This document shows positions 2,279 through 30,498 of a stretch of DNA of 64,000 nt, one piece after another; positions within the stretch are counted from its first letter, which is position 1, and the number at the start of each line of letters is the position of its first letter. The notes beneath the pieces are model-generated. The model searched no databases. It saw nothing but the letters and a program-made list of their open reading frames with translations, and was not told the DNA's origin. This DNA comes from Flectonema sp. DT1601 (taxonomy: Eukaryota): positions 744,001 to 808,000 of the forward strand of contig OZ025805.1 in assembly GCA_964019425.1 (NCBI GenBank). The letters are read 5' to 3'. Made by a program: the position numbers and the translations under genes.

Positions 2279-2328
2279 TTTTTTTTTTTTTCATGTTTGA
2301 TTATTTCCTCTTCATATTTTTTTTTTTC

Positions 2329-2360
<32 letters not shown>

Positions 2361-2552
2361 CTCTGCCTCTCTCTTAATTCTGTTCGTTTCTTTGAAACGA
2401 AAATTCATTTGAATATTATTACTTGGTCAGCAACCATCATTGTCGCCCTTTGGGCCTGTTAAAAAAAATAAAAAATAAAAAGAAAGTTTACATCGGGAAT
2501 AGGGCAGGAGCCAAAAGCTCCCAGTCCGTTACTTCCCACTTTATCGAAATTC
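2279..2552 (+). mobile_element. 274 bp 3'-terminal fragment of the retrotransposon embedded in the satellite HOR (representative long form)
   Basis: Matches the element 3' end (~17172-17443) ending ...ttatcgaaattc. Other long copies: 5526-5799, 7075-7348, 18661-18850 (interrupted), 30417-30690, 31718-31991, 33113-33386, 43722-43995, 45271-45543, 46819-47092, 48400-48673, 49949-50222, 51498-51771, 53109-53382; partial copy at 1-26. Confidence 0.95.
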
Positions 2553-5500
2553 ACCGTGTGTGGAACTGGCAGGTTTTTAAAAAATTTGCGTGGAGTTGGC
2601 AAGTTTTTTGAAAGTTTACGTGTGGAGCTGGCAGGTTTTTAAAAAATTGCGTGGAGTTGACAGGTTTTTTGAAACTTTGTGTGTGGGCTGACGAATTTTG
2701 CAAACTTTGCGTGTGGAGTTGGCAGGTTTTTTGAAACTTTGTGTGTGGAACTGGCAGGTTTTTAAAAAATTTGCGTGGAGTTGGCAAGTTTTTTGAAAGT
2801 TTGCGTGTGGAGCTGGCAGGTTTTTAAAAAAATTGTGTGTGGGCTGACGAATTTTGCAAACTTTGCGTGTGGAGCTGGCACGTTTTTAAAAAATTTGCGT
2901 GGAGTTGAGGTTTTTTGAAACTTTGCGTGTGGGCTGACGAATTTTGCAAACTTTGCGTGTGGAGCTGGCACGTTTTTAAAAAAATTGCGTGGAGTTGGCA
3001 GGTTTTTTGAAACTTTGTGTGTGGAGCTAGCAAGTTTTTAAAAAATTTGCGTGGAATTGACAGGTTTTTTGAAACTTTGCGTGTGGGCTGACGAATTTTG
3101 CAAACTTTGCGTGTGGAGCTGGCAGGTTTTTAAAAAATTTGCGTGGAGTTGGCAGGTTTTTTGAAACTTTGTGTGTGGGCCGACGAATTTTGCAAACTTT
3201 GCGTGTGGAGCTGGCAGGTTTTCGAAAAAATTGCGTGGAGTTGGCAAGTTGTTTAAAACTTTGTGTGTGGGCTGACGAATTTTGCAAACTTTGCGTGTGG
3301 AGTTGGCAGGTTTTTTGATTTTTTTTTTTTTCATGTTTGATTATTTCCTCTTAATTCTGTTCGTTTCTTTGAAACGAAAATTCATTTGAATATTATTACT
3401 TGGTCAGCAACCATCATTGTCGCCCTTTGGGCCTGTTAAAAAAAATAAAAAATAAAAAGAAAGTTTACATCGGGAATAGGGCAGGAGCCAAAAGCTCCCA
3501 GTCCGTTACTTCCCACTTTATCGAAATTCACCGTGTGTGGAACTGGCAGGTTTTTAAAAAATTTGCGTGGAGTTGGCAAGTTTTTTGAAAGTTTACGTGT
3601 GGAGCTGGCAGGTTTTTAAAAAATTTGCATGGAGTTGGCAGGTTTTTTGAAACTTTGTGTGTGGGCCGACGAATTTTGCAAACTTTGCGTGTGGAGCTGG
3701 CAGGTTTTTAAAAATTTGCGTGGAGTTGTCAGGTTTTTTGAAACTTTGCGTGTGGGCTGACGAATGTTGCAAACTTTGCGTGTGGAGCTGGCAAAATTTG
3801 CGTGGAATTGGCAAGTTTTTCGAAAGTTTGTGTGTGGAATTGGCAGGTTTTTAAAAAAATTGCGTGGAGTTGGCAGGTTTTTTAAAACTTTGTGTGGGCT
3901 GACGAATTTTGCAAACTTTGCGTGTAGATGGCAGGTTTTGCAAAATTTGCATGGAGTTGGCAGGTTTTTTGAAACTTTGTGTGTGGAACTGGCAGGTTTT
4001 TAAAAAATTTGCGTTGAGTTGACAGGTTTTTTGAAACTTTGTGTGTGGGCTGACGAATGTTGCAAACTTTGTGTGTGGAGCTGGCAGGTTTTTAAAAACT
4101 TTGCGTGTGGAGCTGGCAGGTTTTTAAAAAAATTGCGTGGAGTTGACAGGTTTTTTGAAACTTTGTGTGTGGGCCGACGAATTTTGCAAACTTTGCGTGT
4201 GGAGCTGGCAGGTTTTCGAAAAAATTGCGTGGAGTTGGCAAGTTGTTTAAAACTTTGTGTGTGGGCTGACGAATTTTGCAAACTTTGCGTGTGGAGTTGG
4301 CAGGTTTTTTGATTTTTTTTTTTTTCATGTTTGATTATTTCCTCTTAATTCTGTTCGTTTCTTTGAAACGAAAATTCATTTGAATATTATTACTTGGTCA
4401 GCAACCATCATTGTCGCCCTTTGGGCCTGTTAAAAAAAATAAAAAATAAAAAGAAAGTTTACATCGGGAATAGGGCAGGAGCCAAAAGCTCCCAGTCCGT
4501 TACTTCCCACTTTATCGAAATTCACCGTGTGTGGAACTGGCAGGTTTTTAAAAAATTTGCGTGGAGTTGGCAAGTTTTTTGAAAGTTTACGTGTGGAGCT
4601 GGCAGGTTTTTAAAAAATTTGCATGGAGTTGGCAGGTTTTTTGAAACTTTGTGTGTGGGCCGACGAATTTTGCAAACTTTGCGTGTGGAGCTGGCAGGTT
4701 TTTAAAAATTTGCGTGGAGTTGTCAGGTTTTTTGAAACTTTGCGTGTGGGCTGACGAATGTTGCAAACTTTGCGTGTGGAGCTGGCAAAATTTGCGTGGA
4801 ATTGGCAAGTTTTTCGAAAGTTTGTGTGTGGAATTGGCAGGTTTTTAAAAAAATTGCGTGGAGTTGACAGGTTTTTTGAAACTTTGTGTGTGGGCTGACG
4901 AATTTTGCAAACTTTGCGTGTGGAGTTGGCAGGTTTTTTGAAACTTTGTGTGTGGAACTGGCAGGTTTTTAAAAAATTTGCGTGGAGTTGGCAAGTTTTT
5001 TGAAAGTTTGCGTGTGGAGCTGGCAGGTTTTTAAAAAAATTGTGTGTGGGCTGACGAATTTTGCAAACTTTGCGTGTGGAGCTGGCACGTTTTTAAAAAA
5101 TTTGCGTGGAGTTGAGGTTTTTTGAAACTTTGCGTGTGGGCTGACGAATTTTGCAAACTTTGCGTGTGGAGCTGGCACGTTTTTAAAAAAATTGCGTGGA
5201 GTTGGCAGGTTTTTTGAAACTTTGTGTGTGGAGCTAGCAAGTTTTTAAAAAATTTGCGTGGAATTGACAGGTTTTTTGAAACTTTGCGTGTGGGCTGACG
5301 AATTTTGCAAACTTTGCGTGTGGAGCTGGCAGGTTTTTAAAAATTTTGCGTGGAGTTGGCAGGTTTTTTGAAACTTTGTGTGTGGGCCGACGAATTTTGC
5401 AAACTTTGCGTGTGGAGCTGGCAGGTTTTCGAAAAAATTGCGTGGAGTTGGCAAGTTTTTTAAAACTTTGTGTGTGGGCTGACGAATTTTGCAAACTTTG

Positions 5501-5575
5501 CGTGTGGAGTTGGCAGGTTTTTTGATTTTTTTTTTTTTCATGTTTGATTATTTCCTCTTCATATTTTTATTTTTC

Positions 5576-5607
<32 letters not shown>

Positions 5608-7124
5608 CTCTGCCTCTCTCTTAATTCTGTTCGTTTCTTTGAAACGAAAATTCATTTGAATATTATTACTTGGTCAGCAACCATCATTGTCGCCCTTTGG
5701 GCCTGTTAAAAAAAATAAAAAATAAAAAGAAAGTTTACATCGGGAATAGGGCAGGAGCCAAAAGCTCCCAGTCCGTTACTTCCCACTTTATCGAAATTCA
5801 CCGTGTGTGGAACTGGCAGGTTTTTAAAAAATTTGCGTGGAGTTGGCAAGTTTTTTGAAAGTTTACGTGTGGAGCTGGCAGGTTTTTAAAAAATTTGCAT
5901 GGAGTTGGCAGGTTTTTTGAAACTTTGTGTGTGGGCCGACGAATTTTGCAAACTTTGCGTGTGGAGCTGGCAGGTTTTTAAAAATTTGCGTGGAGTTGTC
6001 AGGTTTTTTGAAACTTTGCGTGTGGGCTGACGAATGTTGCAAACTTTGCGTGTGGAGCTGGCAAAATTTGCGTGGAATTGGCAAGTTTTTCGAAAGTTTG
6101 TGTGTGGAATTGGCAGGTTTTTAAAAAAATTGCGTGGAGTTGGCAGGTTTTTTAAAACTTTGTGTGGGCTGACGAATTTTGCAAACTTTGCGTGTAGATG
6201 GCAGGTTTTGCAAAATTTGCATGGAGTTGGCAGGTTTTTTGAAACTTTGTGTGTGGAACTGGCAGGTTTTTAAAAAATTTGCGTTGAGTTGACAGGTTTT
6301 TTGAAACTTTGTGTGTGGGCTGACGAATGTTGCAAACTTTGTGTGTGGAGCTGGCAGGTTTTTAAAAACTTTGCGTGTGGAGCTGGCAGGTTTTTAAAAA
6401 AATTGCGTGGAGTTGACAGGTTTTTTGAAACTTTGTGTGTGGGCTGACGAATTTTGCAAACTTTGCGTGTGGAGTTGGCAGGTTTTTTGAAACTTTGTGT
6501 GTGGAACTGGCAGGTTTTTAAAAAATTTGCGTGGAGTTGGCAAGTTTTTTGAAAGTTTGCGTGTGGAGCTGGCAGGTTTTTAAAAAAATTGTGTGTGGGC
6601 TGACGAATTTTGCAAACTTTGCGTGTGGAGCTGGCACGTTTTTAAAAAATTTGCGTGGAGTTGAGGTTTTTTGAAACTTTGCGTGTGGGCTGACGAATTT
6701 TGCAAACTTTGCGTGTGGAGCTGGCACGTTTTTAAAAAAATTGCGTGGAGTTGGCAGGTTTTTTGAAACTTTGTGTGTGGAGCTAGCAAGTTTTTAAAAA
6801 ATTTGCGTGGAATTGACAGGTTTTTTGAAACTTTGCGTGTGGGCTGACGAATTTTGCAAACTTTGCGTGTGGAGCTGGCAGGTTTTTAAAAATTTTGCGT
6901 GGAGTTGGCAGGTTTTTTGAAACTTTGTGTGTGGGCCGACGAATTTTGCAAACTTTGCGTGTGGAGCTGGCAGGTTTTCGAAAAAATTGCGTGGAGTTGG
7001 CAAGTTTTTTAAAACTTTGTGTGTGGGCTGACGAATTTTGCAAACTTTGCGTGTGGAGTTGGCAGGTTTTTTGATTTTTTTTTTTTTCATGTTTGATTAT
7101 TTCCTCTTCATATTTTTTTTTTTC

Positions 7125-7156
<32 letters not shown>

Positions 7157-9332
7157 CTCTGCCTCTCTCTTAATTCTGTTCGTTTCTTTGAAACGAAAAT
7201 TCATTTGAATATTATTACTTGGTCAGCAACCATCATTGTCGCCCTTTGGGCCTGTTAAAAAAAATAAAAAATAAAAAGAAAGTTTACATCGGGAATAGGG
7301 CAGGAGCCAAAAGCTCCCAGTCCGTTACTTCCCACTTTATCGAAATTCACCGTGTGTGGAACTGGCAGGTTTTTAAAAAATTTGCGTGGAGTTGGCAAGT
7401 TTTTTGAAAGTTTACGTGTGGAGCTGGCAGGTTTTTAAAAAATTGCGTGGAGTTGACAGGTTTTTTGAAACTTTGTGTGTGGGCTGACGAATTTTGCAAA
7501 CTTTGCGTGTGGAGTTGGCAGGTTTTTTGAAACTTTGTGTGTGGAACTGGCAGGTTTTTAAAAAATTTGCGTGGAGTTGGCAAGTTTTTTGAAAGTTTGC
7601 GTGTGGAGCTGGCAGGTTTTTAAAAAAATTGTGTGTGGGCTGACGAATTTTGCAAACTTTGCGTGTGGAGCTGGCACGTTTTTAAAAAATTTGCGTGGAG
7701 TTGAGGTTTTTTGAAACTTTGCGTGTGGGCTGACGAATTTTGCAAACTTTGCGTGTGGAGCTGGCACGTTTTTAAAAAAATTGCGTGGAGTTGGCAGGTT
7801 TTTTGAAACTTTGTGTGTGGAGCTAGCAAGTTTTTAAAAAATTTGCGTGGAATTGACAGGTTTTTTGAAACTTTGCGTGTGGGCTGACGAATTTTGCAAA
7901 CTTTGCGTGTGGAGCTGGCAGGTTTTTAAAAAATTTGCGTGGAGTTGGCAGGTTTTTTGAAACTTTGTGTGTGGGCCGACGAATTTTGCAAACTTTGCGT
8001 GTGGAGCTGGCAGGTTTTCGAAAAAATTGCGTGGAGTTGGCAAGTTTTTTAAAACTTTGTGTGTGGGCTGACGAATTTTGCAAACTTTGCGTGTGGAGTT
8101 GGCAGGTTTTTTGATTTTTTTTTTTTTCATGTTTGATTATTTCCTCTTAATTCTGTTCGTTTCTTTGAAACGAAAATTCATTTGAATATTATTACTTGGT
8201 CAGCAACCATCATTGTCGCCCTTTGGGCCTGTTAAAAAAAATAAAAAATAAAAAGAAAGTTTACATCGGGAATAGGGCAGGAGCCAAAAGCTCCCAGTCC
8301 GTTACTTCCCACTTTATCGAAATTCACCGTGTGTGGAACTGGCAGGTTTTTAAAAAATTTGCGTGGAGTTGGCAAGTTTTTTGAAAGTTTACGTGTGGAG
8401 CTGGCAGGTTTTTAAAAAATTTGCATGGAGTTGGCAGGTTTTTTGAAACTTTGTGTGTGGGCCGACGAATTTTGCAAACTTTGCGTGTGGAGCTGGCAGG
8501 TTTTTAAAAATTTGCGTGGAGTTGTCAGGTTTTTTGAAACTTTGCGTGTGGGCTGACGAATGTTGCAAACTTTGCGTGTGGAGCTGGCAAAATTTGCGTG
8601 GAATTGGCAAGTTTTTCGAAAGTTTGTGTGTGGAATTGGCAGGTTTTTAAAAAAATTGCGTGGAGTTGGCAGGTTTTTTAAAACTTTGTGTGGGCTGACG
8701 AATTTTGCAAACTTTGCGTGTAGATGGCAGGTTTTGCAAAATTTGCATGGAGTTGGCAGGTTTTTTGAAACTTTGTGTGTGGAACTGGCAGGTTTTTAAA
8801 AAATTTGCGTTGAGTTGACAGGTTTTTTGAAACTTTGTGTGTGGGCTGACGAATGTTGCAAACTTTGTGTGTGGAGCTGGCAGGTTTTTAAAAACTTTGC
8901 GTGTGGAGCTGGCAGGTTTTTAAAAAAATTGCGTGGAGTTGACAGGTTTTTTGAAACTTTGTGTGTGGGCTGACGAATTTTGCAAACTTTGCGTGTGGAG
9001 TTGGCAGGTTTTTTGAAACTTTGTGTGTGGAACTGGCAGGTTTTTAAAAAATTTGCGTGGAGTTGGCAAGTTTTTTGAAAGTTTGCGTGTGGAGCTGGCA
9101 GGTTTTTAAAAAAATTGTGTGTGGGCTGACGAATTTTGCAAACTTTGCGTGTGGAGCTGGCACGTTTTTAAAAAATTTGCGTGGAGTTGAGGTTTTTTGA
9201 AACTTTGCGTGTGGGCTGACGAATTTTGCAAACTTTGCGTGTGGAGCTGGCACGTTTTTAAAAAAATTGCGTGGAGTTGGCAGGTATTTTGAAACTTTGT
9301 GTGTGGAGCTAGCAAGTTTTTAAAAAATTTGC

Positions 9333-12300
9333 GTGGAATTGACAGGTTTTTTGATTTTCGTTCCTTATAACTCTACAACACCCACTTTTACCCCGTTACA
9401 CCCGTCTCGTCTCAAATTCCGATCTTTTGGAACTAAATGGAAGGACATCGACGTTTCTGCTGCAGAAAAACTTCAAACTTTCACCGTCGAAACAGAAAAC
9501 TCTTCAAAACCTGCCGACCAACTTGATAAACTACTCAAAACGGTTTATCAAATATGTAGCGGTTTCTTTGAAGAAACAAAGCGGAATTTACCCCGCAAAC
9601 AGAAATCAAGGGAAGAGGTCATCCTCGACCAAGAAAAACTTGAATGTCGTCTGGAAATGAAACAGCTAAGACAGGAGCTCCGCAAATCCGGGCCTTCTAT
9701 AGAGAACGCTGTCAAATGGAAAGAGGCAAGAACGAGAATGAAAAGGATTTTCCGAATGTATCGGAATTTAGAAAAGAAAAATTTATTCAAAAAATTACAA
9801 GATAAATTTCGTCAAAATCCGTTTACTGCCATAAAAGAAGAACTCCAAAAAGAAGATCCTCAACCCCCCTCCCTTGATATTCCAGAGGAAAAAATAATTG
9901 AACATTTTAAAAACAATTATTGTGACAATGAAAAAAAAAAAACTGATTTCACCCATCCCTCTTTTTTACCTAAGTCTGACTACAAGACAATGGATGATAT
10001 CCAGTTCCCGAGCTTCGAACAGTTTGGTATTCTCTTATCAAAGAAAAAAAACAAATGTGCCCCTGGTCCCAATTGCATACCTTATGTTGTATGGAAAAAG
10101 GTCCCAACTTTTATGGAAGCACTTTACAAGGTATTAAAGAGAATTTTCGAACTCAAGGCCTATCCGGATAGTTGGGGCTTAGCATTTGTAACAATGCTCC
10201 CAAAGCCCAACTCCGATGGGAAAGACATCTCGAAAACGAGACCGATAGCTGTGGGCAACTGCGACGGGAAAATTTTTAATACGGTTATTCAGGAAGCCGT
10301 CGCAAACCACACTCTTTCTAAATTTAATTTTCAAAAAGGCTTTAGGAAAGGTGTCTCTGGGTGTATCGAACATGCCACGATCACCTCAGAGATTTTTAAA
10401 GAAGTGAAAGCTCTCCGGAAAAACCTAACAATTGTCTGGGTGGATTTGGCAGATGCTTTCGGCTCAGTCAAACATCAATTAATTTTCTTTGCTTTAAAAT
10501 ATTTCGGAATTCACGAAAGAATAATCGGTTTCTATAAAAGGTATTATTCCTCCATGCGCGTCCAAATCAGAGTTGGAGAAGGCCTGACGCCCACTATCCC
10601 TTTTGAAGTTGGTGTCTTTCAAGGCTGCGTTTCCTCCCCAACCCTTTTTAATTTGGTATTCCAACTACTGCTCTTTTCCTTAGCAGTTCATCAACAGGAA
10701 GCCTACGAGTTTAACAATAAATCCCTCCAACTATTAGTTGCAGCTTTTGCTGATGATTTACAACTTACCACGTCATCAAAGGCGGGGGCAAAATTGCTAA
10801 TCAAGTCGCTCGAACAGTTTCTTTCCTGGTCTCGTGGTATGAAAGCGAAACCCCAGAAATGCATTGCCCACAGCTTTGTACAAGGGAAACCAGCTAACCC
10901 GGACCTGAAGATTAACAATGTTCCGATTACGAATCTCCAGGAAGCTGGAGAGTTCAAATACCTCGGGCGTTGGTTTGAGCCGAACGCCAAAGAACAGAAA
11001 TTACGAGAGCGCCTGACCACTTTTACCAGGAATTTTTTAAAAAAAGTCGACGCCATGCCACTATATGGGTCTCAGAAGGCTTGGTCTGTCCAACACTTGT
11101 TATTGTCAAGGTTAACATGGAGTTTAATGATCCATGACTTATCTCTCCCTTTTGCCAAAAAAATGGACAAAATTATTAAACCTTTTTTGAAGAAATGGTG
11201 GGGATTTGTCCGCTCTGCGAACACAGTCATCCTTTTTACCGGTTCAAAGAACACTGTTGGTCTCAGACACAAAAGAGTTGAGACGCTATATAAACAAGCG
11301 CAATCAATTAAACTAGACATCCTCAGATCCTCACAAGACTCTGACATGCACGGTGTCTACAATGTTATTATGGAGAAATCGTCCAACTGGTCGAAAAAGT
11401 TTTCAGCTTCTGCTGAGTGGGAGCGCCTTATTAAGTTTTTTTCTTACCGTTCTCTTGCGAAGCAATCAGCTGGTCTTGGTCACCGATTGCGCGATCTACG
11501 TACTACTCGCCCCGATCTCCTTAAGCGTTTTGAAGTGGAAGCCACAGATGAACTACTGAACTCTTTGAATAAATTACAAGTCCAAGGTCAGTGGAAGGAG
11601 TGGTCTAAATGTATGATAAACGACTTCACCTGGAATAAGGTACTTAGGGAGGGAAATCCTGCCTATATCTCATTTCAACTGAAAGCGGTTACAAACACCC
11701 TCCCCTCACAAGATAATTTAAAGAGGTGGAACATCACCAATGTGGACCAAAATTGTGTTTTGTGTGGCAAAGTGAATCCTACCCTCAGGCATGTCTTAAC
11801 AGGCTGTCCTGTCTCTTTAACACAAGGGAGGTTCACGTGGCGTCACGACAGCGTTCTAAAACGCATTGTTATCTTCTTGGAAGAGTTGATAATAAAAGCC
11901 AACAAAAGAAAAGAAAACCTCCCGCCTCCCTCTCAAACTTTTTTAAAAACAGGGGAAAATAAACCCCTAGAAAGAATTTCTAAAGAGACAGGCGAACTTT
12001 CACTAGCGAATGATTGGGTCATCCTCGACGATGTCGGTGATAACCGCCTAATTGTTCCTCTTGAAGTGTGCCATGTCTCGTCCTCTCTAAGACCAGACAT
12101 TTTTATTTATTCTTTTTTTGCGAAAAGAGCACTGATTCTGGAGCTGACGTGTCCAAATGAAGATCGTTTCGAAACCTCTCATGTCTTAAAGGAAAAGAAA
12201 TACCTAAAGCTAAGAGACTCGATCATCGCTAATGGCTTCGACTGTAACATTTTTACTATTGAAGTTGGCGTACGAGGAAACATCTGCATGGACCAGCTGA

Positions 12301-14117
12301 ACATCTGGACACGTCACATCGGTTCACCTTTAGCACCAACAAAAGCTTTATTTTGTGAATGCACCAGAATCGCCAGACAGTGCTCATATGTTCTGTTCCA
12401 GACGAGGAACCTCCCCACGTGGCATTCAAGACCACTAATGCGCAGCATTAAAGAAGAACCTGCCACTGCAAGTTTTATAAAAGATGGTAAAGAAATCTTC
12501 CCTGTGGAAGAAGTCAAAATCCACAAAGTAACAAAACTGAAAACGATCGAAAAGCTCACCATTGAAAGATCGTGGCTTGAGAAATGTTTTATCTGGCAAA
12601 CTTGTTACGCATCGGCTCTTTCTATTCTACTTATTGCCAATGGTTCTTCCTCCCCGGCCCCTTCTGTTTTGTTAGATGAGGATGAGCTCACTGGACTCTC
12701 CTTGTCATTCTCTTCTATTTCTTCCATCTCTTTCCAGACTCCCCCACCTGAACTCATGTCAACGGGATCGCAAACACTTCTTACTGATTTTGCTATGGTG
12801 ATAAGAACTCAATCTGACATGGGTTCTCAAACCCCCTTGTACAAAAAAAAAGAAGGAAAATTAAGGCTGAAACTTTCCTTGAAATGCCAGATTTTAGAAA
12901 ACGAATTAGAGCAAATGAAAGAACGAATTTTTTATGTTCTATTTTTATTTTACTTTAATGCGATGTCAGCCTCCCTCGAGAAAGACAAGCAGTTACTAAA
13001 TGGATTACCTGTTGAGATCAAAGCTACCAATCAGGATCCATCCTCACTTCCTCCTGCGCCCCCTGTTTTAATTATTGAAAAAGATAGAAAAGAATATGAA
13101 CTTCTGGAAGGAGTAATTCAACGGTTAACAGCAGAACGCGATGAATCGAAGACTTCTCTTTCTGCACTAGTTCGACAATATGACTTAGTGGAAGATTACA
13201 GGAAACGTGAGCTCGCAAATCTGACTCAGAGAGCAGACCTATCGGAAATGGCGCTCTTTAATTACCATCAAAGGTTTGTTCTTCTGTCGAACGAATTGGA
13301 GACCAAATGTAATGAGGAAAGAGAAAGTAAAATAAGACTTTTCTATACTCAACAGGAGGTCGAGAGTTTGCGTGCCGCGCGTCCCCGCATGACCCACTTT
13401 AGTCAACAAGTTTCCCCCCGAACCCCCGTTTTGTATGAATCTGTTGCTATGATGAAGATAGCAAAGAACTACCTCTCGCTCTTTACAACTACGAGTAGTC
13501 TTTTTACTCCTCTTATTAAACCCCTTATCCCTACCCTTAATTATATCACCCCTCTTTGTCCTCTAGCCTCAATTCCTCCGACAATGCCGCGGAGTGAAGC
13601 TCTCGACCGCACGCCGACCAAGATTTTACGACAAGAGAGTCACGTTATCTCCGTTAAAGAGAATACACCTATTGCGAGACAATGGTCCGAGGGTAGGATT
13701 GACTTACTCGAGAATTACTGTCGAGCAGTAGATGACTCTCTCGAAACAAACGAGAAAGCGGCAGAGCTCTCAGAACAACTTTTGGATGCCCAACTTCGCC
13801 TCTCGGAGCTGAATCACCAACGGTGTACAACTCACGCAGAGCAGCTTGAGCAATCCATGATGTTAACGGGACTGGCGAGCGATTTAAATGCTCAACTCGC
13901 CTTGGCACGGTCTCAAATTGCGGCCCTGAAGTTCCAATTAGCTTCATGGGCAGAAGGTTTGAGTCCGCCAGACACAGAAGAACATGAGGAAAATGAAACT
14001 CCGCCGAGAAAGTCTGAGCGTTCAACTCTGAAAAAACGGACCCCTCCATCAAGATATCGTTACAATCGAAGGAGATGTTCTGCTGATGACGTTCACGGTG
14101 ACTCCACCCCCTTGTAA
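9333..14117 (+). CDS. RT-CCHC-RLE polyprotein with long C-terminal extension; N-terminal zinc fingers lost by 5' truncation
   Basis: RT motifs APGPN, RPIAV, QKGF, DLADAFGSV, GVFQGCVSSPTLFN, FADD and FKYLG; knuckle CVLC..HVLTGC; RFTWRHD; RLE motif RPDI..ELTCP..KEKKY..EVGVRG. The first 8 codons are satellite/junction-derived, so element-derived frame starts at ~9357 and the first ATG is at 9657. Confidence 0.93.
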   Translation: MELTGFLIFVPYNSTTPTFTPLHPSRLKFRSFGTKWKDIDVSAAEKLQTFTVETENSSKPADQLDKLLKTVYQICSGFFEETKRNLPRKQKSREEVILDQEKLECRLEMKQLRQELRKSGPSIENAVKWKEARTRMKRIFRMYRNLEKKNLFKKLQDKFRQNPFTAIKEELQKEDPQPPSLDIPEEKIIEHFKNNYCDNEKKKTDFTHPSFLPKSDYKTMDDIQFPSFEQFGILLSKKKNKCAPGPNCIPYVVWKKVPTFMEALYKVLKRIFELKAYPDSWGLAFVTMLPKPNSDGKDISKTRPIAVGNCDGKIFNTVIQEAVANHTLSKFNFQKGFRKGVSGCIEHATITSEIFKEVKALRKNLTIVWVDLADAFGSVKHQLIFFALKYFGIHERIIGFYKRYYSSMRVQIRVGEGLTPTIPFEVGVFQGCVSSPTLFNLVFQLLLFSLAVHQQEAYEFNNKSLQLLVAAFADDLQLTTSSKAGAKLLIKSLEQFLSWSRGMKAKPQKCIAHSFVQGKPANPDLKINNVPITNLQEAGEFKYLGRWFEPNAKEQKLRERLTTFTRNFLKKVDAMPLYGSQKAWSVQHLLLSRLTWSLMIHDLSLPFAKKMDKIIKPFLKKWWGFVRSANTVILFTGSKNTVGLRHKRVETLYKQAQSIKLDILRSSQDSDMHGVYNVIMEKSSNWSKKFSASAEWERLIKFFSYRSLAKQSAGLGHRLRDLRTTRPDLLKRFEVEATDELLNSLNKLQVQGQWKEWSKCMINDFTWNKVLREGNPAYISFQLKAVTNTLPSQDNLKRWNITNVDQNCVLCGKVNPTLRHVLTGCPVSLTQGRFTWRHDSVLKRIVIFLEELIIKANKRKENLPPPSQTFLKTGENKPLERISKETGELSLANDWVILDDVGDNRLIVPLEVCHVSSSLRPDIFIYSFFAKRALILELTCPNEDRFETSHVLKEKKYLKLRDSIIANGFDCNIFTIEVGVRGNICMDQLNIWTRHIGSPLAPTKALFCECTRIARQCSYVLFQTRNLPTWHSRPLMRSIKEEPATASFIKDGKEIFPVEEVKIHKVTKLKTIEKLTIERSWLEKCFIWQTCYASALSILLIANGSSSPAPSVLLDEDELTGLSLSFSSISSISFQTPPPELMSTGSQTLLTDFAMVIRTQSDMGSQTPLYKKKEGKLRLKLSLKCQILENELEQMKERIFYVLFLFYFNAMSASLEKDKQLLNGLPVEIKATNQDPSSLPPAPPVLIIEKDRKEYELLEGVIQRLTAERDESKTSLSALVRQYDLVEDYRKRELANLTQRADLSEMALFNYHQRFVLLSNELETKCNEERESKIRLFYTQQEVESLRAARPRMTHFSQQVSPRTPVLYESVAMMKIAKNYLSLFTTTSSLFTPLIKPLIPTLNYITPLCPLASIPPTMPRSEALDRTPTKILRQESHVISVKENTPIARQWSEGRIDLLENYCRAVDDSLETNEKAAELSEQLLDAQLRLSELNHQRCTTHAEQLEQSMMLTGLASDLNAQLALARSQIAALKFQLASWAEGLSPPDTEEHEENETPPRKSERSTLKKRTPPSRYRYNRRRCSADDVHGDSTPL

Positions 14118-14289
14118 TTCTCTTTTTCCTTACTTTCACATCATTTTGTTTATTTAGTTTTTTTAGCTTATTTATTATTTATTGTTCGTTTTTGTTTGTA
14201 TTATTTTATCGATATGTTTATGTCCGTCAGATCATAACGTTAATCAGGTTAATTGTTAATTGTTAATTATAAATGGTCTAAACCCCAAT

Positions 14290-14535
14290 CCAAGTTCCCA
14301 AGGCTTGGCATAGATTTGAGTGACGCCTTACTGGCCTCCTCATCCTCTATGAGTGGTGAGGGGGCCAGCAATGGTTTTTTTTTTTTTTTTTTCTCTTATT
14401 TCTTTTTTTCTTTTTCTTTTACTCTAATATGAAATATTTTTGAACAAAATGTGATTATTAATTTAAAAAAAAAAAAAAAAATAAATAATGTAAATGAATA
14501 ATAAAAAAAAAAAAAAAAAAATTATGCCTTGGGAA
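14290..14535 (+). other. Putative structured RNA element at start of the 3' UTR
   Basis: Hairpin ctggcctcctca...tgagggggccag (14331-14368); ttcccaaggc (14295-14304) is the exact reverse complement of gccttgggaa (14526-14535). Both motifs are retained in the minus copy (~24343-24591). Confidence 0.5.
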
Positions 14536-14616
14536 TACAACCAAAGCCCCAATTAATCGGTCCTTTCTTTTTCCTTCTTGTCAAGTGATCGCTCCACTCG
14601 TCGATCACCAAAACCG

Positions 14617-15023
14617 ATTGTATTTATATCTGTTCTTTTCTCAACGATCGGCTATACCGATCATTTTTTTAAAATAATTGTTTTCTTCTTCTCGACGATC
14701 AGATCAAATTGATCGACCTTTTTTTTTTTTTTTTTTTCCTTTATTCCTTCCATCCCTCCCGCTCCCCTAATTTTAAATAAAAACAAGATCAGCTCAGCTT
14801 GATCGTTAATCTTTTTTTTCTTTTTTAATTTAAACTGATTGTATTTATATCTGTTTATTTTTCTCAACGATCGGCTATACCGATCAACCTTTAAAATAAT
14901 TTCTTCTTCTCGACGATCAGATCCAATTGATCAACCTTTTCTTTTTTTTTCCTCTATTCCTTCCATCCCTCCCGCTCCCCTATTTGTAATAAAAACAAGA
15001 TCAGCTCAGCTTGATCGTTAATT
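14617..15023 (+). repeat. Two diverged ~190 bp direct repeats in the retroelement 3' UTR
   Basis: gattgtatttatatctg...gatcagctcagcttgatcgttaat at ~14617 and ~14837. Also present in copy A' (+25061) and in the minus copy (~23840-24260). Confidence 0.85.
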
Positions 15024-15344
15024 TTTTTTCTTTCTTTTTTGTTGGTCCTAGTCAGGACCTTAAACTGACTAACCGGTCTTAATTTAAATAAGTGTTAACC
15101 TAGTTTCTCTTTTCCTTTTCATTTTCCTTTTAATACTCTCTATCTGGTCTGTTATGTCATATTTCTCAATTAATTTTATCATCCATTTTACTTTTCACTG
15201 TTTCCCATCTACATTTTATTTTCAAATAGTTACGGTCTGTTAAAAAAAAAAAAAGTTTAAATAAGTTAAATCGAACATGTTAACTCAATTCCTCAATTCT
15301 TCCGTCATGGTCATGACATTCTTTTTCGTTTTTCTAATGCACAA

Positions 15345-15439
15345 GAGATACCATCACTCATGAGATACCAACGCACATACGAGATACCAGCACTCCAGAG
15401 ATACCGACACGCTAGAGATACCAAGTCACTTGAGATACC
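15345..15439 (+). repeat. GAGATACC x6 mini-array with 9-11 nt variable spacers
   Basis: Motif starts at 15345, 15362, 15381, 15398, 15415 and 15432. Equivalent arrays at 40406-40500 and, inverted, at 23452-23546. Confidence 0.9.
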
Positions 15440-15689
15440 TCCTTGTAAATTAATTCCCGGTATTTCAAATTTGAATTGATAGTGTCAACTCTGCTTGCTG
15501 CTCTTGTTCATGTGTTGTCTCCTGAAAGTGATCTTAACTCCTATAAAAAGAAAAAAAAAAAAAAAGAAATCAAAAAAGAAGAATTTTCAAACGAAGTTAT
15601 AACAACCCCTACCACCCATTATGATCAATTCCGCTTGTTTTTTTTTTTTTTTTAAAAACAAATAAAACAAATAAAAAAAAAAAATTATA

Positions 15690-16995
15690 AAAGATCAAAC
15701 AATGTTATCATTGTTTTTTTTTATCGATCGACTCTGTCGACTAATTTCTATTTTCCGTTTTTTTTCTTTAAAAAATAAATAAAAAGAATTTAAAAAAAAA
15801 AAAAAAAAAAAGATTAAACAATGTTATCATTGTTTTTTTATCGATCGACTATGTCGATTACTTTCTATTTTCCGTCCTGGTCAAGACGCTAAACTGATTG
15901 TTTTTTTCAAAATTAATAAAAAAGAATATAAAAAAAAAAAAAAAAAAGAATAAACAATGTTATCATTATTTTTTCTATCGTTCGACTTTGTCGACTAATT
16001 TCTATTTTCCGTTTTTTTTCTTTAAAAATAAATAAAAAGAATTTAAAAAACAAAAAAAGAATAAACAATGTTATCATTTTTTTTTTTATCGATCGACTAT
16101 GTCGATCACTTTCTATTTTCCGTCCTGGTCAAGACGCTAAACTGATTGTTTTTTTTTTCAAAATTAAAAAAGAATATAAAAAAGAAAAAATAAAAAAAAA
16201 AAAAGAATAAACAATGTTATCATTGTTTTTTTTATCGATCGACTCTGTCGACTAATTTCTATTTTCTTTTTTTTCTTTAAAAAATAAATAAAAAGAATTT
16301 AAAAAAAAAAAAAAAAAAAGAAATAAACAATGTTATCATTGTTTTTTTTATCGATCGACTTTGTCGATTACTGTCTACTTTCCGTCCTGGTCAAGACGCT
16401 AAACTGATTTTTTTTTTTTTTTAAAAATTAATAAAAAGAATATAAAAAAAAAAAAAAAAAAAAATGAATAAACAATGTTATCATTGTTTCTTATCGATCG
16501 ACTTTGTCGACTAATTTCTATTTTCCGTCCTGGTCAGGACGCTAAACTGATTGTTTTTTCTTTAAGAAATAAATAAAAAGATAAATAAAAAAAAAAAAAA
16601 AAAAAAGGAATAAACAATGTTATCATTGTTTTTTTTATCGATCGACTATGTCGATTACTTTCTATTTTCCGTCCTGGTCAGGACGCTAAACTGATTGTTT
16701 TTTCTTTAAGAAATAAATAAAAAGTTAAAAAAAAAAAAAAAAAAAAAAAAGGAATAAACAATGTTATCATTGTTTTTTTTTTATCGATCGACTATGTCGA
16801 TTACTTTCTATTTTCTGTCCTGGTCAAGACGCTAAACGGTAGTTTTTTCTTTAAAATAATTAAAAGGATTTAAAAAAAAAAAAAAAAAAAAAAAAGAATA
16901 AACAATGTTATCATTGTTTTTTTTTCTATCGATCGACTATGTCGATTAATTTCTATTTTCCGTCCTGATCGAGACACTAAACTGATTGTTTCCTT
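15690..16995 (+). repeat. 3' UTR tandem array, 10 units of ~110-145 bp with palindromic cores
   Basis: Each unit has aaacaatg-ttat-cattgttt plus atcgatcgactatgtcgat, with or without ccgtcctggtcaagacgctaaactgattg, separated by poly-A tracts. Confidence 0.92.
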
Positions 16996-17443
16996 TTTTT
17001 TTAAATAATAAATAAAAAAAAAAAATAAAAAAAAAAAAAAAAAAGAGCATCTCCCTGCTATCCCTCATATCCCCACAATAATATTATACCTTTTCATTTT
17101 CTCTTTCCTTTTCTGGTCTTTATTTTTTTTTTTTCCTTTTTCATACAACGTTTTTTTATTTATATATTTTTTTTTTTTTTTTTTCATGTTTGATTATTTC
17201 CTCTTCATATTTTTTTTCTTTTTTCTTTTCTTTCTTTTTTTTCTTTTTTTTCTCTGCCTCTCTCTTAATTCTGTTCGTTTCTTTGAAACGAAAATTCATT
17301 TGAATATTATTCCTTGGTCAGCAACCATCATTGTCGCCCTTTGGGCCTGTTAAAAAAAATAAAAAATAAAAAGAAAGTTTACATCGGGAATAGGGCAGGA
17401 GCCAAAAGCTCCCAGTCCGTTACTTCCCACTTTATCGAAATTC

Positions 17444-18710
17444 AAAGTTTACGTGTGGAGCTGGCAGGTTTTTAAAAAATTTGCATGGAGTTGGCAGGTT
17501 TTTTGAAACTTTGTGTGTGGGCCGACGAATTTTGCAAACTTTGCGTGTGGAGCTGGCAGGTTTTTAAAAATTTGCGTGGAGTTGTCAGGTTTTTTGAAAC
17601 TTTGCGTGTGGGCTGACGAATGTTGCAAACTTTGCGTGTGGAGCTGGCAAAATTTGCGTGGAATTGGCAAGTTTTTCGAAAGTTTGTGTGTGGAATTGGC
17701 AGGTTTTTAAAAAAATTGCGTGGAGTTGGCAGGTTTTTTAAAACTTTGTGTGGGCTGACGAATTTTGCAAACTTTGCGTGTAGATGGCAGGTTTTGCAAA
17801 ATTTGCATGGAGTTGGCAGGTTTTTTGAAACTTTGTGTGTGGAACTGGCAGGTTTTTAAAAAATTTGCGTTGAGTTGACAGGTTTTTTGAAACTTTGTGT
17901 GTGGGCTGACGAATGTTGCAAACTTTGTGTGTGGAGCTGGCAGGTTTTTAAAAACTTTGCGTGTGGAGCTGGCAGGTTTTTAAAAAAATTGCGTGGAGTT
18001 GACAGGTTTTTTGAAACTTTGTGTGTGGGCTGACGAATTTTGCAAACTTTGCGTGTGGAGTTGGCAGGTTTTTTGAAACTTTGTGTGTGGAACTGGCAGG
18101 TTTTTAAAAAATTTGCGTGGAGTTGGCAAGTTTTTTGAAAGTTTGCGTGTGGAGCTGGCAGGTTTTTAAAAAAATTGTGTGTGGGCTGACGAATTTTGCA
18201 AACTTTGCGTGTGGAGCTGGCACGTTTTTAAAAAATTTGCGTGGAGTTGAGGTTTTTTGAAACTTTGCGTGTGGGCTGACGAATTTTGCAAACTTTGCGT
18301 GTGGAGCTGGCACGTTTTTAAAAAAATTGCGTGGAGTTGGCAGGTTTTTTGAAACTTTGTGTGTGGAGCTAGCAAGTTTTTAAAAAATTTGCGTGGAATT
18401 GACAGGTTTTTTGAAACTTTGCGTGTGGGCTGACGAATTTTGCAAACTTTGCGTGTGGAGCTGGCAGGTTTTTAAAAATTTTGCGTGGAGTTGGCAGGTT
18501 TTTTGAAACTTTGTGTGTGGGCCGACGAATTTTGCAAACTTTGCGTGTGGAGCTGGCAGGTTTTCGAAAAAATTGCGTGGAGTTGGCAAGTTTTTTAAAA
18601 CTTTGTGTGTGGGCTGACGAATTTTGCAAACTTTGCGTGTGGAGTTGGCAGGTTTTTTGATTTTTTTTTTTTTCATGTTTGATTATTTCCTCTTCATATT
18701 TTTATTTTTC

Positions 18711-18742
<32 letters not shown>

Positions 18743-18850
18743 CTCTGCCTCTCTCTTAATTCTGTTCGTTTCTTTGAAACGAAAATTCATTTGAATATTA
18801 TTACTTGGTCAGCAACCATCATTGTCGCCCTTTGGGCCTGTTAAAAAAAA
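17444..18850. repeat. Satellite block 2 (one HOR unit; its 3'-tip fragment is cut by the minus-strand insertion)
   Basis: Same monomers; the tip fragment runs 18661-18850 and stops at gggcctgttaaaaaaaa. Confidence 0.95.
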
Positions 18851-19043
18851 GAATTTCGATAAAGTGGGAAGTAACGGACTGGGAGCTTTTGGCTCCTGCC
18901 CTATTCCCGATGTAAACTTTCTTTTTATTTTTATTTTTTTTTAACAGGCCCAAAGGGCGACAATGATGGTTGCTGACCAAGGAATAATATTCAAATGAAT
19001 TTTCGTTTCAAAGAAACGAACAGAATTAAGAGAGAGGCAGAGG

Positions 19044-19074
<31 letters not shown>

Positions 19075-19309
19075 GAAAAAAAAAAATGAAGAGGAAATAA
19101 TCAAACATGAAAAAAAAAAAAAAAAAAAAAATATATATATATAAATAAAAAACGTTGTATGAAAAAGGAAAAAAAAGAAAAAAAAAAGACCAGAAAAGGA
19201 AAGAGAAAATGAAAAGGTATAATATTATTGTGGGGATATGAGGGATAGCAGGGAGATGCTCTTTTTTTTTTTTTTTTTTTTTTTTTCTTATTTATTATTT
19301 AAAAAAAGG

Positions 19310-22300
19310 AAACAATCAGTTTAGCGTCTTGATCAGGACGGAAAATAGAAATTAATCGACATAGTTGATCGATAGAAAAAAAAACAATGATAACATTGTT
19401 TATTCATTTTTTTTTTTTTTTTTTTTTTTTAAATCTTTTTAATTATTTTAAAGAAAAAACAATCAGTTTAGCGTCTTGACCAGGACGGAAAATAGTAAGT
19501 AATCGACATAGTCGATCGATAAAAAAAAACAATGATAACATTGTTTATTCCTTTTTTTTTTTTTTTATTCTTTTTATTTATTTTTAAAGAAAAAACAATC
19601 AGTTTAGCGTCCTGACCAGGACGGAAAATAGAAAGTAATCGACATAGTCGATCGATAAAAAAAAACAATGATAACATTGTTTATTCTTTTTTTTTTTTTT
19701 TATTTTAATTCTTTTTATTTATTTTTTAAAAAGAAAAAAATGGAAAATAGAAATTAGTCAACAAAGTCGAACGATAAAAAAAAACAATGATAACATTGTT
19801 TATTCTTTTTTTTTTTATTTTTTTTATATTCTTTTTTATTAATTTTGAAAAAAAAAACAATCAGTTTAGCGTCTTGACCAGGACGGAAAATAGAAAGTAA
19901 TCGACATAGTCGATCGATAAAAAAAACAATGATAACATTGTTTATTCTTTTTTTTTTTTATTTTAAATTCTTTTTATTTATTTTTTAAAGAAAAAAAACG
20001 GAAAATAGAAATTAGTCGACAAAGTCGAACGATAAAAAAAAACAATGATAACATTGTTTATTCTTTTTTTTGTATTTTTTTATATTCTTTTTTATTAATT
20101 TTGAAAAAAAAACAATCAGTTTAGCGTCTTGACCAGGACGGAAAATAGAAAGTAATCGACATAGTCGATCGATAAAAAAAACAATGATAACATTGTTTAT
20201 TCTTTTTTTTTTTTTTTTTTTTAAATTCTTTTTATTAATTTTTTAAAGAAAAAAACGGAAAATAGAAATTAGTCAACAAAGTCGAACGATAAAAAAAAAC
20301 AATGATAACATTGTTTATTCTTTTTTTTTATTTTATTTTTTTTAATATTTTTTTTTATTTTGAAAAAAAAAACAATCAGTTTAGCGTCTTGACCAGGACG
20401 GAAAATAGAAAGTAATCGACATAGTCGATCGATAAAAAAAAACAATGATAACATTGTTTATTCTTTTTTTTTATTTTAAATTCTTTTTATTTATTTTTTA
20501 AAGAAAAAAAACGGAAAATAGAAATTAGTCGACAAAGTCGAACGATAAAAAAAAAACAATGATAACATTGTTTATTCTTTTTTTTTTTGTATTTTTTTTT
20601 ATATTCTTTTTTATTAATTTTGAAAAAAAAAACAATCAGTTTAGCGTCTTGACCAGGACGGAAAATAGAAAGTGATCGACATAGTCGATCGATAAAAAAA
20701 CAATGATAACATTGTTTATTCTTTTTTTTTATTTTAAATTCTTTTTATTTATTTTTTAAAGAAAAAAAAAAGGAAAATAGAAATTAGTCGACAAAGTCGA
20801 ACGATAAAAAAAACAATGATAACATTGTTTATTCTTTTTTTTGTATTTTTTTATATTCTTTTTTATTAATTTTGAAAAAAAAAAAACAATCAGTTTAGCG
20901 TCTTGACCAGGACGGAAAATAGAAAGTGATCGACATAGTCGATCGATAAAAAAAAACAATGATAACATTGTTTATTCTTTTTTTTTATTTTGAATTCTTT
21001 TTATTTATTCTTTAAAGAAAAGAAACGGAAAATAGAAATTAGTCGACAAAGTCGAACGATAAAAAAAAACAGTGATAACATTGTTTTTCCTTTTTTTTTT
21101 TTTTTTTTATATTCTTTTTTATTAATTTTGAAAAAAAAAAAACAATCAGTTTAGCGTCTTGACCAGGACGGAAAATAGAAAGTGATCGACATAGTCGATC
21201 GATAAAAAAACAATGATAACATTGTTTATTCTTTTTTTTTATTTTAAATTCTTTTTATTTATTCTTTAAAGAAAAGAAACGGAAAATAGAAATTAGTCGA
21301 CAAAGTCGAACGATAAAAAAAAAACAATGATAACATTGTTTATTCTTTTTTTTTTTTTTTTTTTTTTATATTCTTTTTTATTAATTTTGAAAAAAAAAAA
21401 CAATCAGTTTAGCGTCTTGACCAGGACGGAAAATAGAAAGTGATCGACATAGTCGATCGATAAAAAAACAATGATAACATTGTTTATTCTTTTTTTTTAT
21501 TTTAAATTCTTTTTATTTATTTTTTAAAGAAAAAAAACGGAAAATAGAAATTAGTCAACAAAGTCGAACGATAAAAAAAACAATGATAACATTGTTTATT
21601 CTTTTTTTTTTTTTTTTTTTTATTCTTTTTTATTAATTTTGAAAAAAAAACAATCAGTTTAGCGTCTTGACCAGGACGGAAAATAGAAAGTGATCGACAT
21701 AGTCGATCGATAAAAAAACAATGATAACATTGTTTATTCTTTTTTTTTATTTTAAATTCTTTTTATTTATTTTTTAAAGAAAAAAAACGGAAAATAGAAA
21801 TTAGTCGACAAAGTCGAACGATAAAAAAAACAATGATAACATTGTTTATTCTTTTTTTTGTATTTTTTTATATTCTTTTTTATTAATTTTGAAAAAAAAA
21901 AACAATCAGTTTAGCGTCTTGACCAGGACGGAAAATAGAAAGTGATCGACATAGTCGATCGATAAAAAAAAACAATGATAACATTGTTTATTCTTTTTTT
22001 TTATTTTAAATTCTTTTTATTTATTCTTTAAAGAAAAGAAACGGAAAATAGAAATTAGTCGACAAAGTCGAACGATAAAAAAAAAACAATGATAACATTG
22101 TTTATTCTTTTTTTTTTTTTTTTTTATATTCTTTTTTATTAATTTTGAAAAAAAAACAATCAGTTTAGCGTCTTGACCAGGACGGAAAATAGAAAGTGAT
22201 CGACATAGTCGATCGATAAAAAAACAATGATAACATTGTTTATTCTTTTTTTTTTATTTTAAATTCTTTTTATTTATTTTTTAAAGAAAAAAAACGGAAA

Positions 22301-23135
22301 ATAGAAATTAGTCGACAAAGTCGAACGATAGAAAAAACAATGATAACATTGTTTATTCTTTTTTATTTATTTTAAATTCTTTTTATTTATTTTTTAAAGA
22401 AAAAAAACGGAAAATAGAAATTAGTCAACAAAGTCGAACAATAAAAAAAAACAATGATAACATTGTTTATTCTTTTTTTTTTTTTTTTTTTTTATATTCT
22501 TTTTTATTAATTTTGAAAAAAAAAAACAATCAGTTTAGCGTCTTGACCAGGACGGAAAATAGAAAGTAATCGACATAGTCGATCGATAAAAAAACAATGA
22601 TAACATTGTTTATTCTTTTTTTTTATTTTAAATTCTTTTTATTTATTATTAAAAGAAAAGAAACGGAAAATAGAAATTAGTCGACAAAGTCGAACGATAA
22701 AAAAAAAACAATGATAACATTGTTTATTCTTTTTTTTTTTTTTTTATATTCTTTTTATTAATTTTTTAAAAAAAAAAAAAAAAACAATCAGTTTAGCGTC
22801 TTGACCAGGACGGAAAATAGAAAGTAATCGACATAGTCGATCGATAAAAAAACAATGATAACATTGTTTATTCTTTTTTTTTATTTTAAATTCTTTTTAT
22901 TTATTATTAAAAGAAAAGAAACGGAAAATAGAAATTAGTCGACAAAGTCGAACGATAAAAAAAAAACAATGATAACATTGTTTATTCTTTTTTTTTTTTT
23001 TTTATATTCTTTTTATTAATTTTTTAAAAAAAAAAAAAAAAACAATCAGTTTAGCGTCTTGACCAGGACGGAAAACTGGAAGTAATCGACATAGTCGATC
23101 GATAAAAAAAACAATGATAACATTGTTTCATCTTT
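19310..23135 (-). repeat. Expanded 3' UTR palindromic array, about 30 units, mostly alternating A/B dimers
   Basis: About 30 occurrences of aacaatgataacattgttt. Units with cagtttagcgtcttgaccaggacgg + gacatagtcgatcgat mostly alternate with units carrying gacaaagtcgaacgat. Confidence 0.92.
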
Positions 23136-24384
23136 TATATTTTTTAATTTTTTTTTTATATTTGAAGAAAAGAAAGAAGAAAAAAAAAAAAAAAAAAAAA
23201 AAAAAAACAAGCGGAATTGATCATAATGGGTGGCAGGGGTTGATATAACTTCATTTGAAAATTCTTCTTTTTTAATTTCTTTTTTTTTGAAATTTTTTTT
23301 TTTTTATTTAACAGGAGTTAAGATCACTTACATGAGTTAACACAACACAGATACGAGAGTAGCAAAATGAGGTAACACTACCAATTCAACAAAAAATAAT
23401 CAGGATCGGACACAAGGAGGAGAGTTCATTCTACCTCTCACTGTCCTTGCTGGTATCTTAAGTGTCTTGGTATCTCTTGTGTGTCGGTATCTCGGAAGTG
23501 CTGGTATCTCGTATGTGCGTTGGTATCTCTTGCGTGTTGGTATCTCTTGCACATAATAAAAAAAAAAATATTGAGTTAACATGATCAGTTTTATTTATCA
23601 TCAGAGACAGACCGGAACTATTTGAAAATAAAATGTAGATGGGAAACAGTGAAAATTAAAATGAATGATAAAATTAAATGAGATTTATGACATAACAGAC
23701 CAGATAGGGAGTAATAAAGGGAAAAGGAAAACGGAAAGGGTTCATTCACTTAGTTAAAGTTAAGACCGATTAGTCAGTTTAAGGTCTTGACTAGGACCAA
23801 CAAAAAAAAAAAAAATATAAATAAATAAATAAATAAATAAATAACGATCAAGCTGAGCTGATCTTGTTTTTATTAAAATAAGGGGAGCGGGAGGGATGGA
23901 AGGAATAAAGGAAAAAAAAAGAAAAGGTCGATCAATTGGATCTGGTCGTCGAGAAGAAGAAGACAATTATTTTAAAGGTCGATCGGCATAGCCGATCGTT
24001 GAGAAAAATAACCAGATATAAATACAATCAGTTTAAATAAAAAAAAAAAAAAATAAATAAATAAAAAAAGTTTAACGATCAAGCTGAGCTGATCTTGTTT
24101 TTATTAAAATAAGGGGAGCGGGAGGGATGGAAGGAATAAAGGAAAAAAAAAGAAAAGGTCGATCAATTGGATCTGATCGTCGAGAAGAAGAAAACAATTA
24201 TTTTTAAAAAAAATGATCGGTATAGCCGATCGTTGAGAAAAGAACAGATATAAATACAATCGGTTTTGGTGATCGACGAGTGGAGCGATCACTTGACAAG
24301 AAGGAAAAAAGAAAGGACCGATTAATTGGGGCTTTGGTTGTATTCCCAAGGCATGTTTTTTTTTTTTTTTTTTTATTATTCATT

Positions 24385-24419
<35 letters not shown>

Positions 24420-24593
24420 TAATCACATTTTGTTCAAAAATATTTCATATTAGAGTAAAAGAAAAAGAAAAAAAGAAATAAGAGAAAAAAAAAAAAACCA
24501 TTGCTGGCCCCCTCACCACTCATAGAGGATGAGGAGGCCAGTAAGGCGTCACTCAAATCTATGCCAAGCCTTGGGAACTTGGATTGGGGTTTA

Positions 24594-30466: not shown

Positions 30467-30498
<32 letters not shown>

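Follow-up and report, generated by a model that had tools for sequence, protein, structure and literature searches.

What does a retrotransposon protein do with several hundred residues beyond the endonuclease that ordinarily closes it? This question is raised by a 64,000-nucleotide stretch of the Flectonema sp. DT1601 assembly GCA_964019425.1 (contig OZ025805.1, positions 744,001 to 808,000), here called the window, which contains copies of a retrotransposon lacking long terminal repeats (non-LTR) with a restriction-like endonuclease (RLE). When the window was read with the standard code from stop to stop, three long open reading frames (ORFs) were found: A, B, and a duplicate of A. The third is not independent because it is identical to A by way of an exact duplication, and thus two independent variants remain. 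Judged by its motifs, the element is a HERO-like RLE retrotransposon encoding a single protein. An earlier sequence-only reading had reported that the frame stays open about 560 codons past the RLE in both copies. This was confirmed (Table 1): B carries 563 residues beyond the tryptophan that closes the RLE, and A likewise reads on for ~563 codons. As detailed below, this tail is a selected protein-coding fusion.

The expectation that an RLE normally ends its ORF is borne out by the relatives of the element. A search with the reverse transcriptase (RT) and RLE regions produced 37 proteins, the best 24 of which were aligned. All 21 relatives that share a clade with B stop 0-35 amino acids (aa) past the RLE tryptophan, and three aligned relatives outside the clade stop 3, 75 and 157 aa past it. 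B groups with, and nests inside, this tailless clade in a quick tree (SH-aLRT 99), and the tail is therefore a derived gain. The possibility that known relatives already carry such a tail was not borne out by these 21 proteins, although the named HERO sequences available for comparison cover the RT only. Reviews likewise place the RLE as the C-terminal domain (PMC4640811, PMC13708176, PMC13580325) and describe the extra domains of R2, HERO, NeSL and CRE proteins as N-terminal to the RT. No RLE element with a coiled-coil tail after the endonuclease emerged from a literature search that had Repbase and Fell et al. 2025 outside its scope, where a prior description is possible, and a term search of PMC13188248 gave no match.

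The enzyme itself appears to be finished before the tail starts. An alignment-based structure model of B residues 930-1330 has predicted local distance difference test (pLDDT) values mostly of 84-96 up to residue ~1209 and <50 from residue 1214, and its zinc knuckle and RLE best match R2Tg in a Foldseek search (9dou, E 1.4e-9). Because confidence collapses where the tail begins and the fold matches R2, the RLE is modelled as complete at this point. An assembly artefact does not account for the fusion, because two other runs, X1 and X3, yield contigs that span the junction. Tail queries and clusters also recovered 48 family fragments from public assemblies, a sample in which a tailless subfamily may be underrepresented; 18 of the 19 that cross the RLE end read into the tail, and the exception enters the family's own 3′ untranslated region (UTR). 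Insertions or frameshifts interrupt many of these fragments, which is what dead copies should show. The RT-RLE query additionally gave three short loci (1.1-1.4 kb), all of which end before the RLE end is passed.

Comparison of A and B provides the evidence for selection. Over the whole tail, the ratio of nonsynonymous to synonymous substitution rates (dN/dS) is 0.31 (confidence interval [CI] 0.25-0.39), and over residues 1233-1597 it is 0.19 (proportions of synonymous and nonsynonymous differences, pS and pN, of 0.70 and 0.30), with the proviso that synonymous sites are near saturation and make these ratios approximate. It had been claimed that the frame survives heavy divergence and must be selected; purifying selection is indeed evident, but the heavy divergence is confined to residues ~1233-1597. 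Every one of the nine alignment gaps in the tail is a multiple of three. Not one of 2000 neutral simulations retained an open frame at any of four divergence levels, and the mean was 9.3 stops at 0.3 substitutions per site. In all six tail segments, codon use fits the ORF frame better than either of the two alternative sense frames. Among 18 variants of ORF A in other runs, each called from single low-depth contigs, 15 are synonymous, including six of six in the A cassette described below (runs X1 and X4), and the three nonsynonymous ones all fall in a shared linker, where X3 also carries B-type sequence. Constraint is weak in residues 1113-1232 (dN/dS 0.61, CI 0.24-1.70). The ratio is below 1 in every tail segment, with no signal of positive selection.

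The divergence between the two tails is sharply localized, a fact that escaped the sequence-only reading. The DNA of A and B is 99%-100% identical across the endonuclease and the opening residues of the tail, and 93%-96% identical up to position 13000. Identity then falls to 51%-75% (about 60%) over 13000-14200 and returns to 94%-100% up to 15000. In run X3, the two forms make a clean bubble of 1169 versus 1114 letters between common flanks, at depths of 9.3 and 2. Given the identity profile and this bubble, we conclude that a 1.1-kb cassette exists as two old alleles on one backbone. Synonymous divergence (dS) is ~2 in the cassette versus 0.012 in the core, a difference of more than 100-fold, and both forms are seen in many near-identical copies. 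A third tail variant (P0054, on a European Nucleotide Archive contig of 481,603 bp) shares 36%-39% identity across 120 residues; it lacks the Phe/Tyr-rich hydrophobic stretch of A and B and was called as a short separate ORF. The cassette would have passed between two old subfamilies, most simply by recombination or alternatively by template switching.

Table 1. Positions of the element copies, their domains, and the surrounding satellite in the window
Feature	Position	Strand	Remarks
ORF A	9324-14117	+	1597 codons stop to stop; open
RT domain (RVT_1) of A	10200..10967	+	E 5e-26, aa 293-548; catalytic FADD intact
CCHC zinc knuckle and RLE of A	11754..12422	+	RPD..ELT..K..Y; ends at conserved Trp
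Proximal tail common to A and B	12423..13024	+	93-100% DNA identity; low-confidence linker
C-terminal extension of A	12438..14117	+	559 aa from ATG
A-type cassette	13025..14193	+	1169 nt; approximate boundaries
Predicted long helix 1 (tail 216-302)	13083..13343	+	Leucine-zipper-like register by eye; dN/dS 0.18 (aa 1255-1365)
Predicted long helix 2 (tail 412-505)	13671..13952	+	dN/dS 0.17 (aa 1451-1550)
Bipartite nuclear localization signal (NLS)-like motif (KKRTPPS...RRR)	14031..14075	+	Pattern match only; kept in B
3′ UTR of A	14118..17443	+	Internal tandem array; no poly(A); runs directly into satellite
Copy B	18851..30386	-	Inverted; 3′ end adjoins short copy of same family
ORF B	30193-24899	-	1764 codons stop to stop; open
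Two CCHC-type zinc fingers, N-terminal in B	29753..29965	-	Seen in sequence; Pfam zf-C2H2 weak, E 0.13
C-terminal extension of B	24899..26575	-	558 aa from ATG
B-type cassette	24872..25985	-	1114 nt
Second copy of A	ORF 34385-39178 inside 34348..43911	+	Letter-identical to A
30-bp G-rich satellite hosting the elements	30..55325	+	Holds 18 amplified short 3′-end element fragments

Within the tail, a single-sequence AlphaFold2 model contains two long helices (helix pLDDT about 50-74) joined by disordered linkers. The helices had been described beforehand as heptad-like. Long helices are indeed predicted, but the heptad periodicity is weak: among nine segments tested, helix 2 has a hydrophobic periodicity of 3.50 with p=0.03, helix 1 has p=0.12, and a control linker has p=0.047, and a stricter scan of a/d positions reached p<0.05 in four windows of A and in no window of B. 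From the models, the helices likely form coiled coils, and oligomerization through them is plausible. The helices and the NLS-like motif are the best-kept parts of the tail, and the most conserved block of the cassette (aa 1451-1500, 68% aa identity) is within helix 2. Other predicted features were recovered in both variants, namely the Ser-rich linkers, which are rich in Ser, Thr and Pro, and the basic NLS-like end, which matches a bipartite pattern. A Thr-Pro site of the cyclin-dependent kinase consensus, also retained in both, is located upstream of that motif. The in-frame ATG near which the tail was said to start is present at 12438, but it has no special support and its context is unremarkable.

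Homology searches with the tail returned nothing outside the family itself. All 18 matches among 1.84 billion representatives belong to it, as do the four matches among proteins of 306-979 aa, whereas none of 7986 scored full-length proteins of 970-3087 aa matched at E<=1, and no match was found among JGI metagenome and viral contigs. Within the tail, Pfam showed neither an RRM nor a zinc knuckle nor any further RNA-binding domain, and no 2A-like motif was found there. Three further candidates were rejected. For the initial 75 residues of the tail, a chromodomain-like reading received no Pfam family at E<=10, and this segment is a low-confidence helix in both models. A transmembrane reading failed because no 19-residue window exceeds 1.4 on the Kyte-Doolittle scale. 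A CENP-F lead from the ESM-Atlas was not confirmed by Pfam. Separately, a Glu/Ser-rich antisense frame of 67-68 codons (12605-12808, reverse strand) is open in both variants and has negative codon scores; it is probably a shadow frame and possibly a trace of the linker's origin.

We propose, with a probability of roughly 0.4, that the ~560-residue tail is a scaffold that self-associates or binds a host partner, assists nuclear entry, and biases insertion to repeat-rich chromatin. The in-frame fusion, its intact RT and RLE motifs, and the cassette exchange are direct observations; each functional step is inferred. The element RNA would be translated as one polypeptide, and the predicted long helices would form coiled coils through which the protein associates with itself or with a host partner. 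The basic NLS-like end would then carry the ribonucleoprotein (RNP) into the nucleus, where clustering in repeat-rich chromatin would be due to the tail and not to survival bias or the zinc fingers at the N-terminus. There is a precedent in Tal1/EVD, for which swapping the variable integrase C-terminus switches targeting (PMC11735389). By analogy, the tail might be a docking module for centromeric or heterochromatic proteins and the cassettes swappable specificity alleles, making it the counterpart of the Tal1/EVD switch among long interspersed nuclear elements (LINEs) and the first RLE retrotransposon to select its chromosomal surroundings by protein-protein docking; we regard this more specific version as unlikely.

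Circumstantial evidence for chromatin or kinetochore targeting comes from satellite residence and from nested copies. The satellite is strictly one-stranded (257 motif matches on the forward strand and 0 on the reverse), is organized in higher-order units of ~1-1.6 kb that each include a 220-280 bp retroelement 3′-end fragment, and ends abruptly at unique DNA. Copy A and the ancestor of the short copies have an identical 12-nt satellite sequence at the 5′ junction. Family fragments have 30 foreign flanks, of which 11 match the 3′ UTR of the family itself (E<1e-10) and two do so weakly. The 39 family proteins that were looked up are spread over contigs of 30 different sizes. Tandem LINE copying inside satellites is known (bioRxiv 10.64898/2026.09.17.752431).

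Numerous observations weigh against the scaffold proposal. With regard to clustering, the 18 short copies reflect amplification of the array and not independent targeting, because their junctions are shared. The remaining flanks comprise four DNA transposon sequences, one satellite, and 12 unmatched; only six nested 3′ ends are unambiguous, and some other flanks of own UTR may be internal deletions. A general graveyard of transposable elements also accounts for the nesting, and clustering fits regional targeting but is equally well explained by survival in gene-poor DNA. Moreover, RLE elements usually choose their targets by N-terminal zinc fingers or Myb domains (PMC13708176), and B carries two N-terminal zinc fingers of that kind. 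With regard to selection, the near-saturation of synonymous sites noted above applies, and a B-cassette variant at 25440 in X3 is nonsynonymous.

The structural and homology results count on the same side. The tail model is of low confidence (mean pLDDT 43.6, predicted template modeling score 0.21), with a best Foldseek match of E 5.5; the heptad statistics are weak as well. The best Pfam match for the tail, PPP1R21_C, has an E of 0.006 and falls below the cut-off, and the best sequence match in the PDB has an E of 0.36. Look-alikes in the ESM-Atlas (the CENP-F C-terminus, Spindly, and CEP proteins) share 115-146 of 256 features, and these neighbors read as generic eukaryotic coiled-coil proteins. 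The sequence-only reading had drawn an analogy to the targeting domains of centrophilic LTR integrases, which finds no counterpart in sequence or fold: Pfam, PDB and Foldseek searches revealed no chromodomain, integrase C-terminal domain, or kinetochore homology. What endures of its broader suggestion of an oligomerization or targeting module is a selected, derived, protein-coding fusion, but not homology to targeting domains.

Other functions for the tail can be considered. The one that survives best, though we find it rather unlikely, is an ORF1p-like module for oligomerization and RNP packaging, attached at the far end of the protein, that raises retrotransposition efficiency without choosing sites, with clustering left to zinc-finger preference and survival in gene-poor DNA. 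L1 ORF1p trimerizes through coiled coils, and mouse L1 families have passed such a coiled coil from one to another (PMC3600994), which closely parallels the cassette exchange. DNA transposons have accumulated in the copies of the element too, making up four of the 30 flanks. This explanation must contend with a tail in which no RNA-binding domain was detected and with 21 relatives that manage without the tail.

An improbable alternative is that the tail acts in counter-defense or another host conflict, such as anti-silencing or escape from restriction, with two old cassettes persisting because they evade different host factors. The contrast in dS between cassette and core looks as if an old allele had been recruited onto a successful backbone, and the coiled coil of primate L1 has been proposed to reflect an arms race (PMC3600994). 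However, a single neutral recombination event gives the same pattern, dN/dS stays below 1 in every segment, and no host partner of the tail is known.

It is quite improbable that internal initiation near 12438, splicing or proteolysis releases the tail as a product of its own, perhaps descended from a captured host gene or from an ORF that once lay downstream, in which case the fusion would amount to no more than a missing stop codon. The ATG lies six codons past the RLE tryptophan, where most relatives end, and the RLE model is complete ahead of the tail and followed by a low-confidence linker. Near 12670 and 12970 there are pyrimidine-rich tracts that end in AG, and P0054, as noted, was called as a short separate ORF. 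Against this, the junction has no stop or frameshift in 18 of 19 fragments, the search of 1.84 billion representatives found no stand-alone or host homolog, and both the missing 2A-like motif and the unremarkable ATG context offer no encouragement. Finally, neutral read-through into noncoding DNA is very improbable: residues 1113-1232 do look low in complexity and weakly constrained, with a short protein-like antisense frame, but the simulations, the excess of pS over pN, and the in-frame gaps refute it for residues 1233-1597 and leave it possible for the proximal linker alone.

The scaffold proposal can also be viewed beside known systems. The HERO elements HERO-1_PP, HERO-1_SP, HERO-2_DR and HERO-1_BF likewise encode zinc fingers at the N-terminus, an RT, a CCHC knuckle and an RLE in one ORF, whereas the present element adds 563 post-RLE residues in two forms and a 3′ UTR of at least 3.3 kb; HERO insertion is mostly nonspecific, with some microsatellite-targeting families (PMC4640811). 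R2 proteins (R2Tg 9dou, R2Pm 9nl2, R2Bm 8gh6) are similar in the RT (E 4e-33) as well as in the knuckle-RLE fold, and the noncanonical initiation of R2p (PMC13580325) resembles the lack of a methionine ahead of the zinc fingers here. Unlike R2, this element resides outside ribosomal DNA, has no Myb domain detected, and does not end with its RLE.

Variable modules after a catalytic nuclease are also present in the integrase C-terminus of the centrophilic LTR element Tal1/ALE4 and the CRM chromodomain. This is an analogy only, because the Flectonema tail is long, helical, and attached to an enzyme of target-primed reverse transcription (TPRT), with no similarity in sequence or fold detected, and its satellite is not known as centromeric. 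The L1 ORF1p coiled coil is likewise a long helical module exchanged between coexisting families (PMC3600994), but ORF1p is a separate upstream ORF with an RRM as well as a C-terminal domain, whereas the tail here is fused downstream. LINE copies are nested or centromere-clustered in Zepp/ZeppL (bioRxiv 10.1101/2025.03.28.645958) and Celine (PMC11288735) too. ZeppL is of the L1 class and Celine is a two-ORF LINE; both have CENH3 evidence, and the accessible portions of these reports mention no such tail for either.

That many near-identical copies naturally carry a 560-residue fusion at the C-terminus suggests that a large domain can be accommodated at this end of the protein, a point of relevance to gene-insertion tools built on R2. 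With an enzyme that is 99% identical and two tail alleles that are deeply diverged, nature has also set up a swap experiment. Should the tail determine the region of insertion, it would offer a testable mechanism for LINE clustering in satellites and centromeres.

The classification of the element is based on several features. An RT, a knuckle with a PD-(D/E)xK endonuclease, and the TPRT signature all identify an RLE-type non-LTR retrotransposon: RVT_1 matches both variants (E 4e-26 to 5e-26), FADD aligns with relatives, the C, C, H, C, PD, E and K columns of the knuckle-RLE alignment are nearly invariant, all 21 3′ ends found are identical, and A and the short copies are 5′-truncated. Only the usual C-terminal position of the RLE is absent, since 563 residues follow it; this does not exclude membership, because clades rest on RT phylogeny and domain content. 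N-terminal zinc fingers (with similar ones in P0001-P0005), one ORF, and no APE domain agree with HERO. RT motifs fit the HERO rows of PMC5678591 (supplement 6) better than those of CRE, Dong, NeSL or Utopia, a comparison with named HERO elements that was made by eye only, while the relatives in the tree are all unnamed. R2-clade membership, marked by insertion in 28S rDNA and a Myb domain, is contradicted by flanks of satellite or own copies and by the lack of Myb in Pfam.

Copy A is a 5′-truncated element for which the satellite supplies the first ~11 codons of the ORF, and copy B is probably near full length. The first methionine of ORF B is at aa 280, downstream from both zinc fingers (29357-30193, reverse strand); judged from the sequence, translation may begin by R2-like non-AUG initiation, or a splice acceptor may be used past the long T tract near 30140-30090. 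The 3′ UTR array has units of 113-146 bp, at 15640-17046 in A (about 1.4 kb) and 19260-23175 in B (3.9 kb), and at its 3′ end the element lacks a poly(A) tail and forms a terminal hairpin. An Rfam scan of 14100-31000 gave no match. In B, a 194-bp tandem duplication (24603-24969) covers the last codons of the ORF and the start of the 3′ UTR. The segment 34348-43911 is an exact 9.56-kb duplicate of 9287-18850 with zero mismatches, and reflects either a very recent event or an assembly artefact.

Beyond the satellite, short dispersed repeats with units of about 60 bp are located just past its edge (55640-55920). Terminal inverted repeats and a disrupted integrase-like frame (weak rve match, E 0.017) mark a probable DNA transposon at 56696-59370 and 60391, and its sequence also borders four fragments of the retroelement family. 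Two forward-strand ORFs farther along (61118-61909 and 62411-63270) encode hydrophobic segments with no Pfam match at E<=0.1, and are probably host genes with introns.

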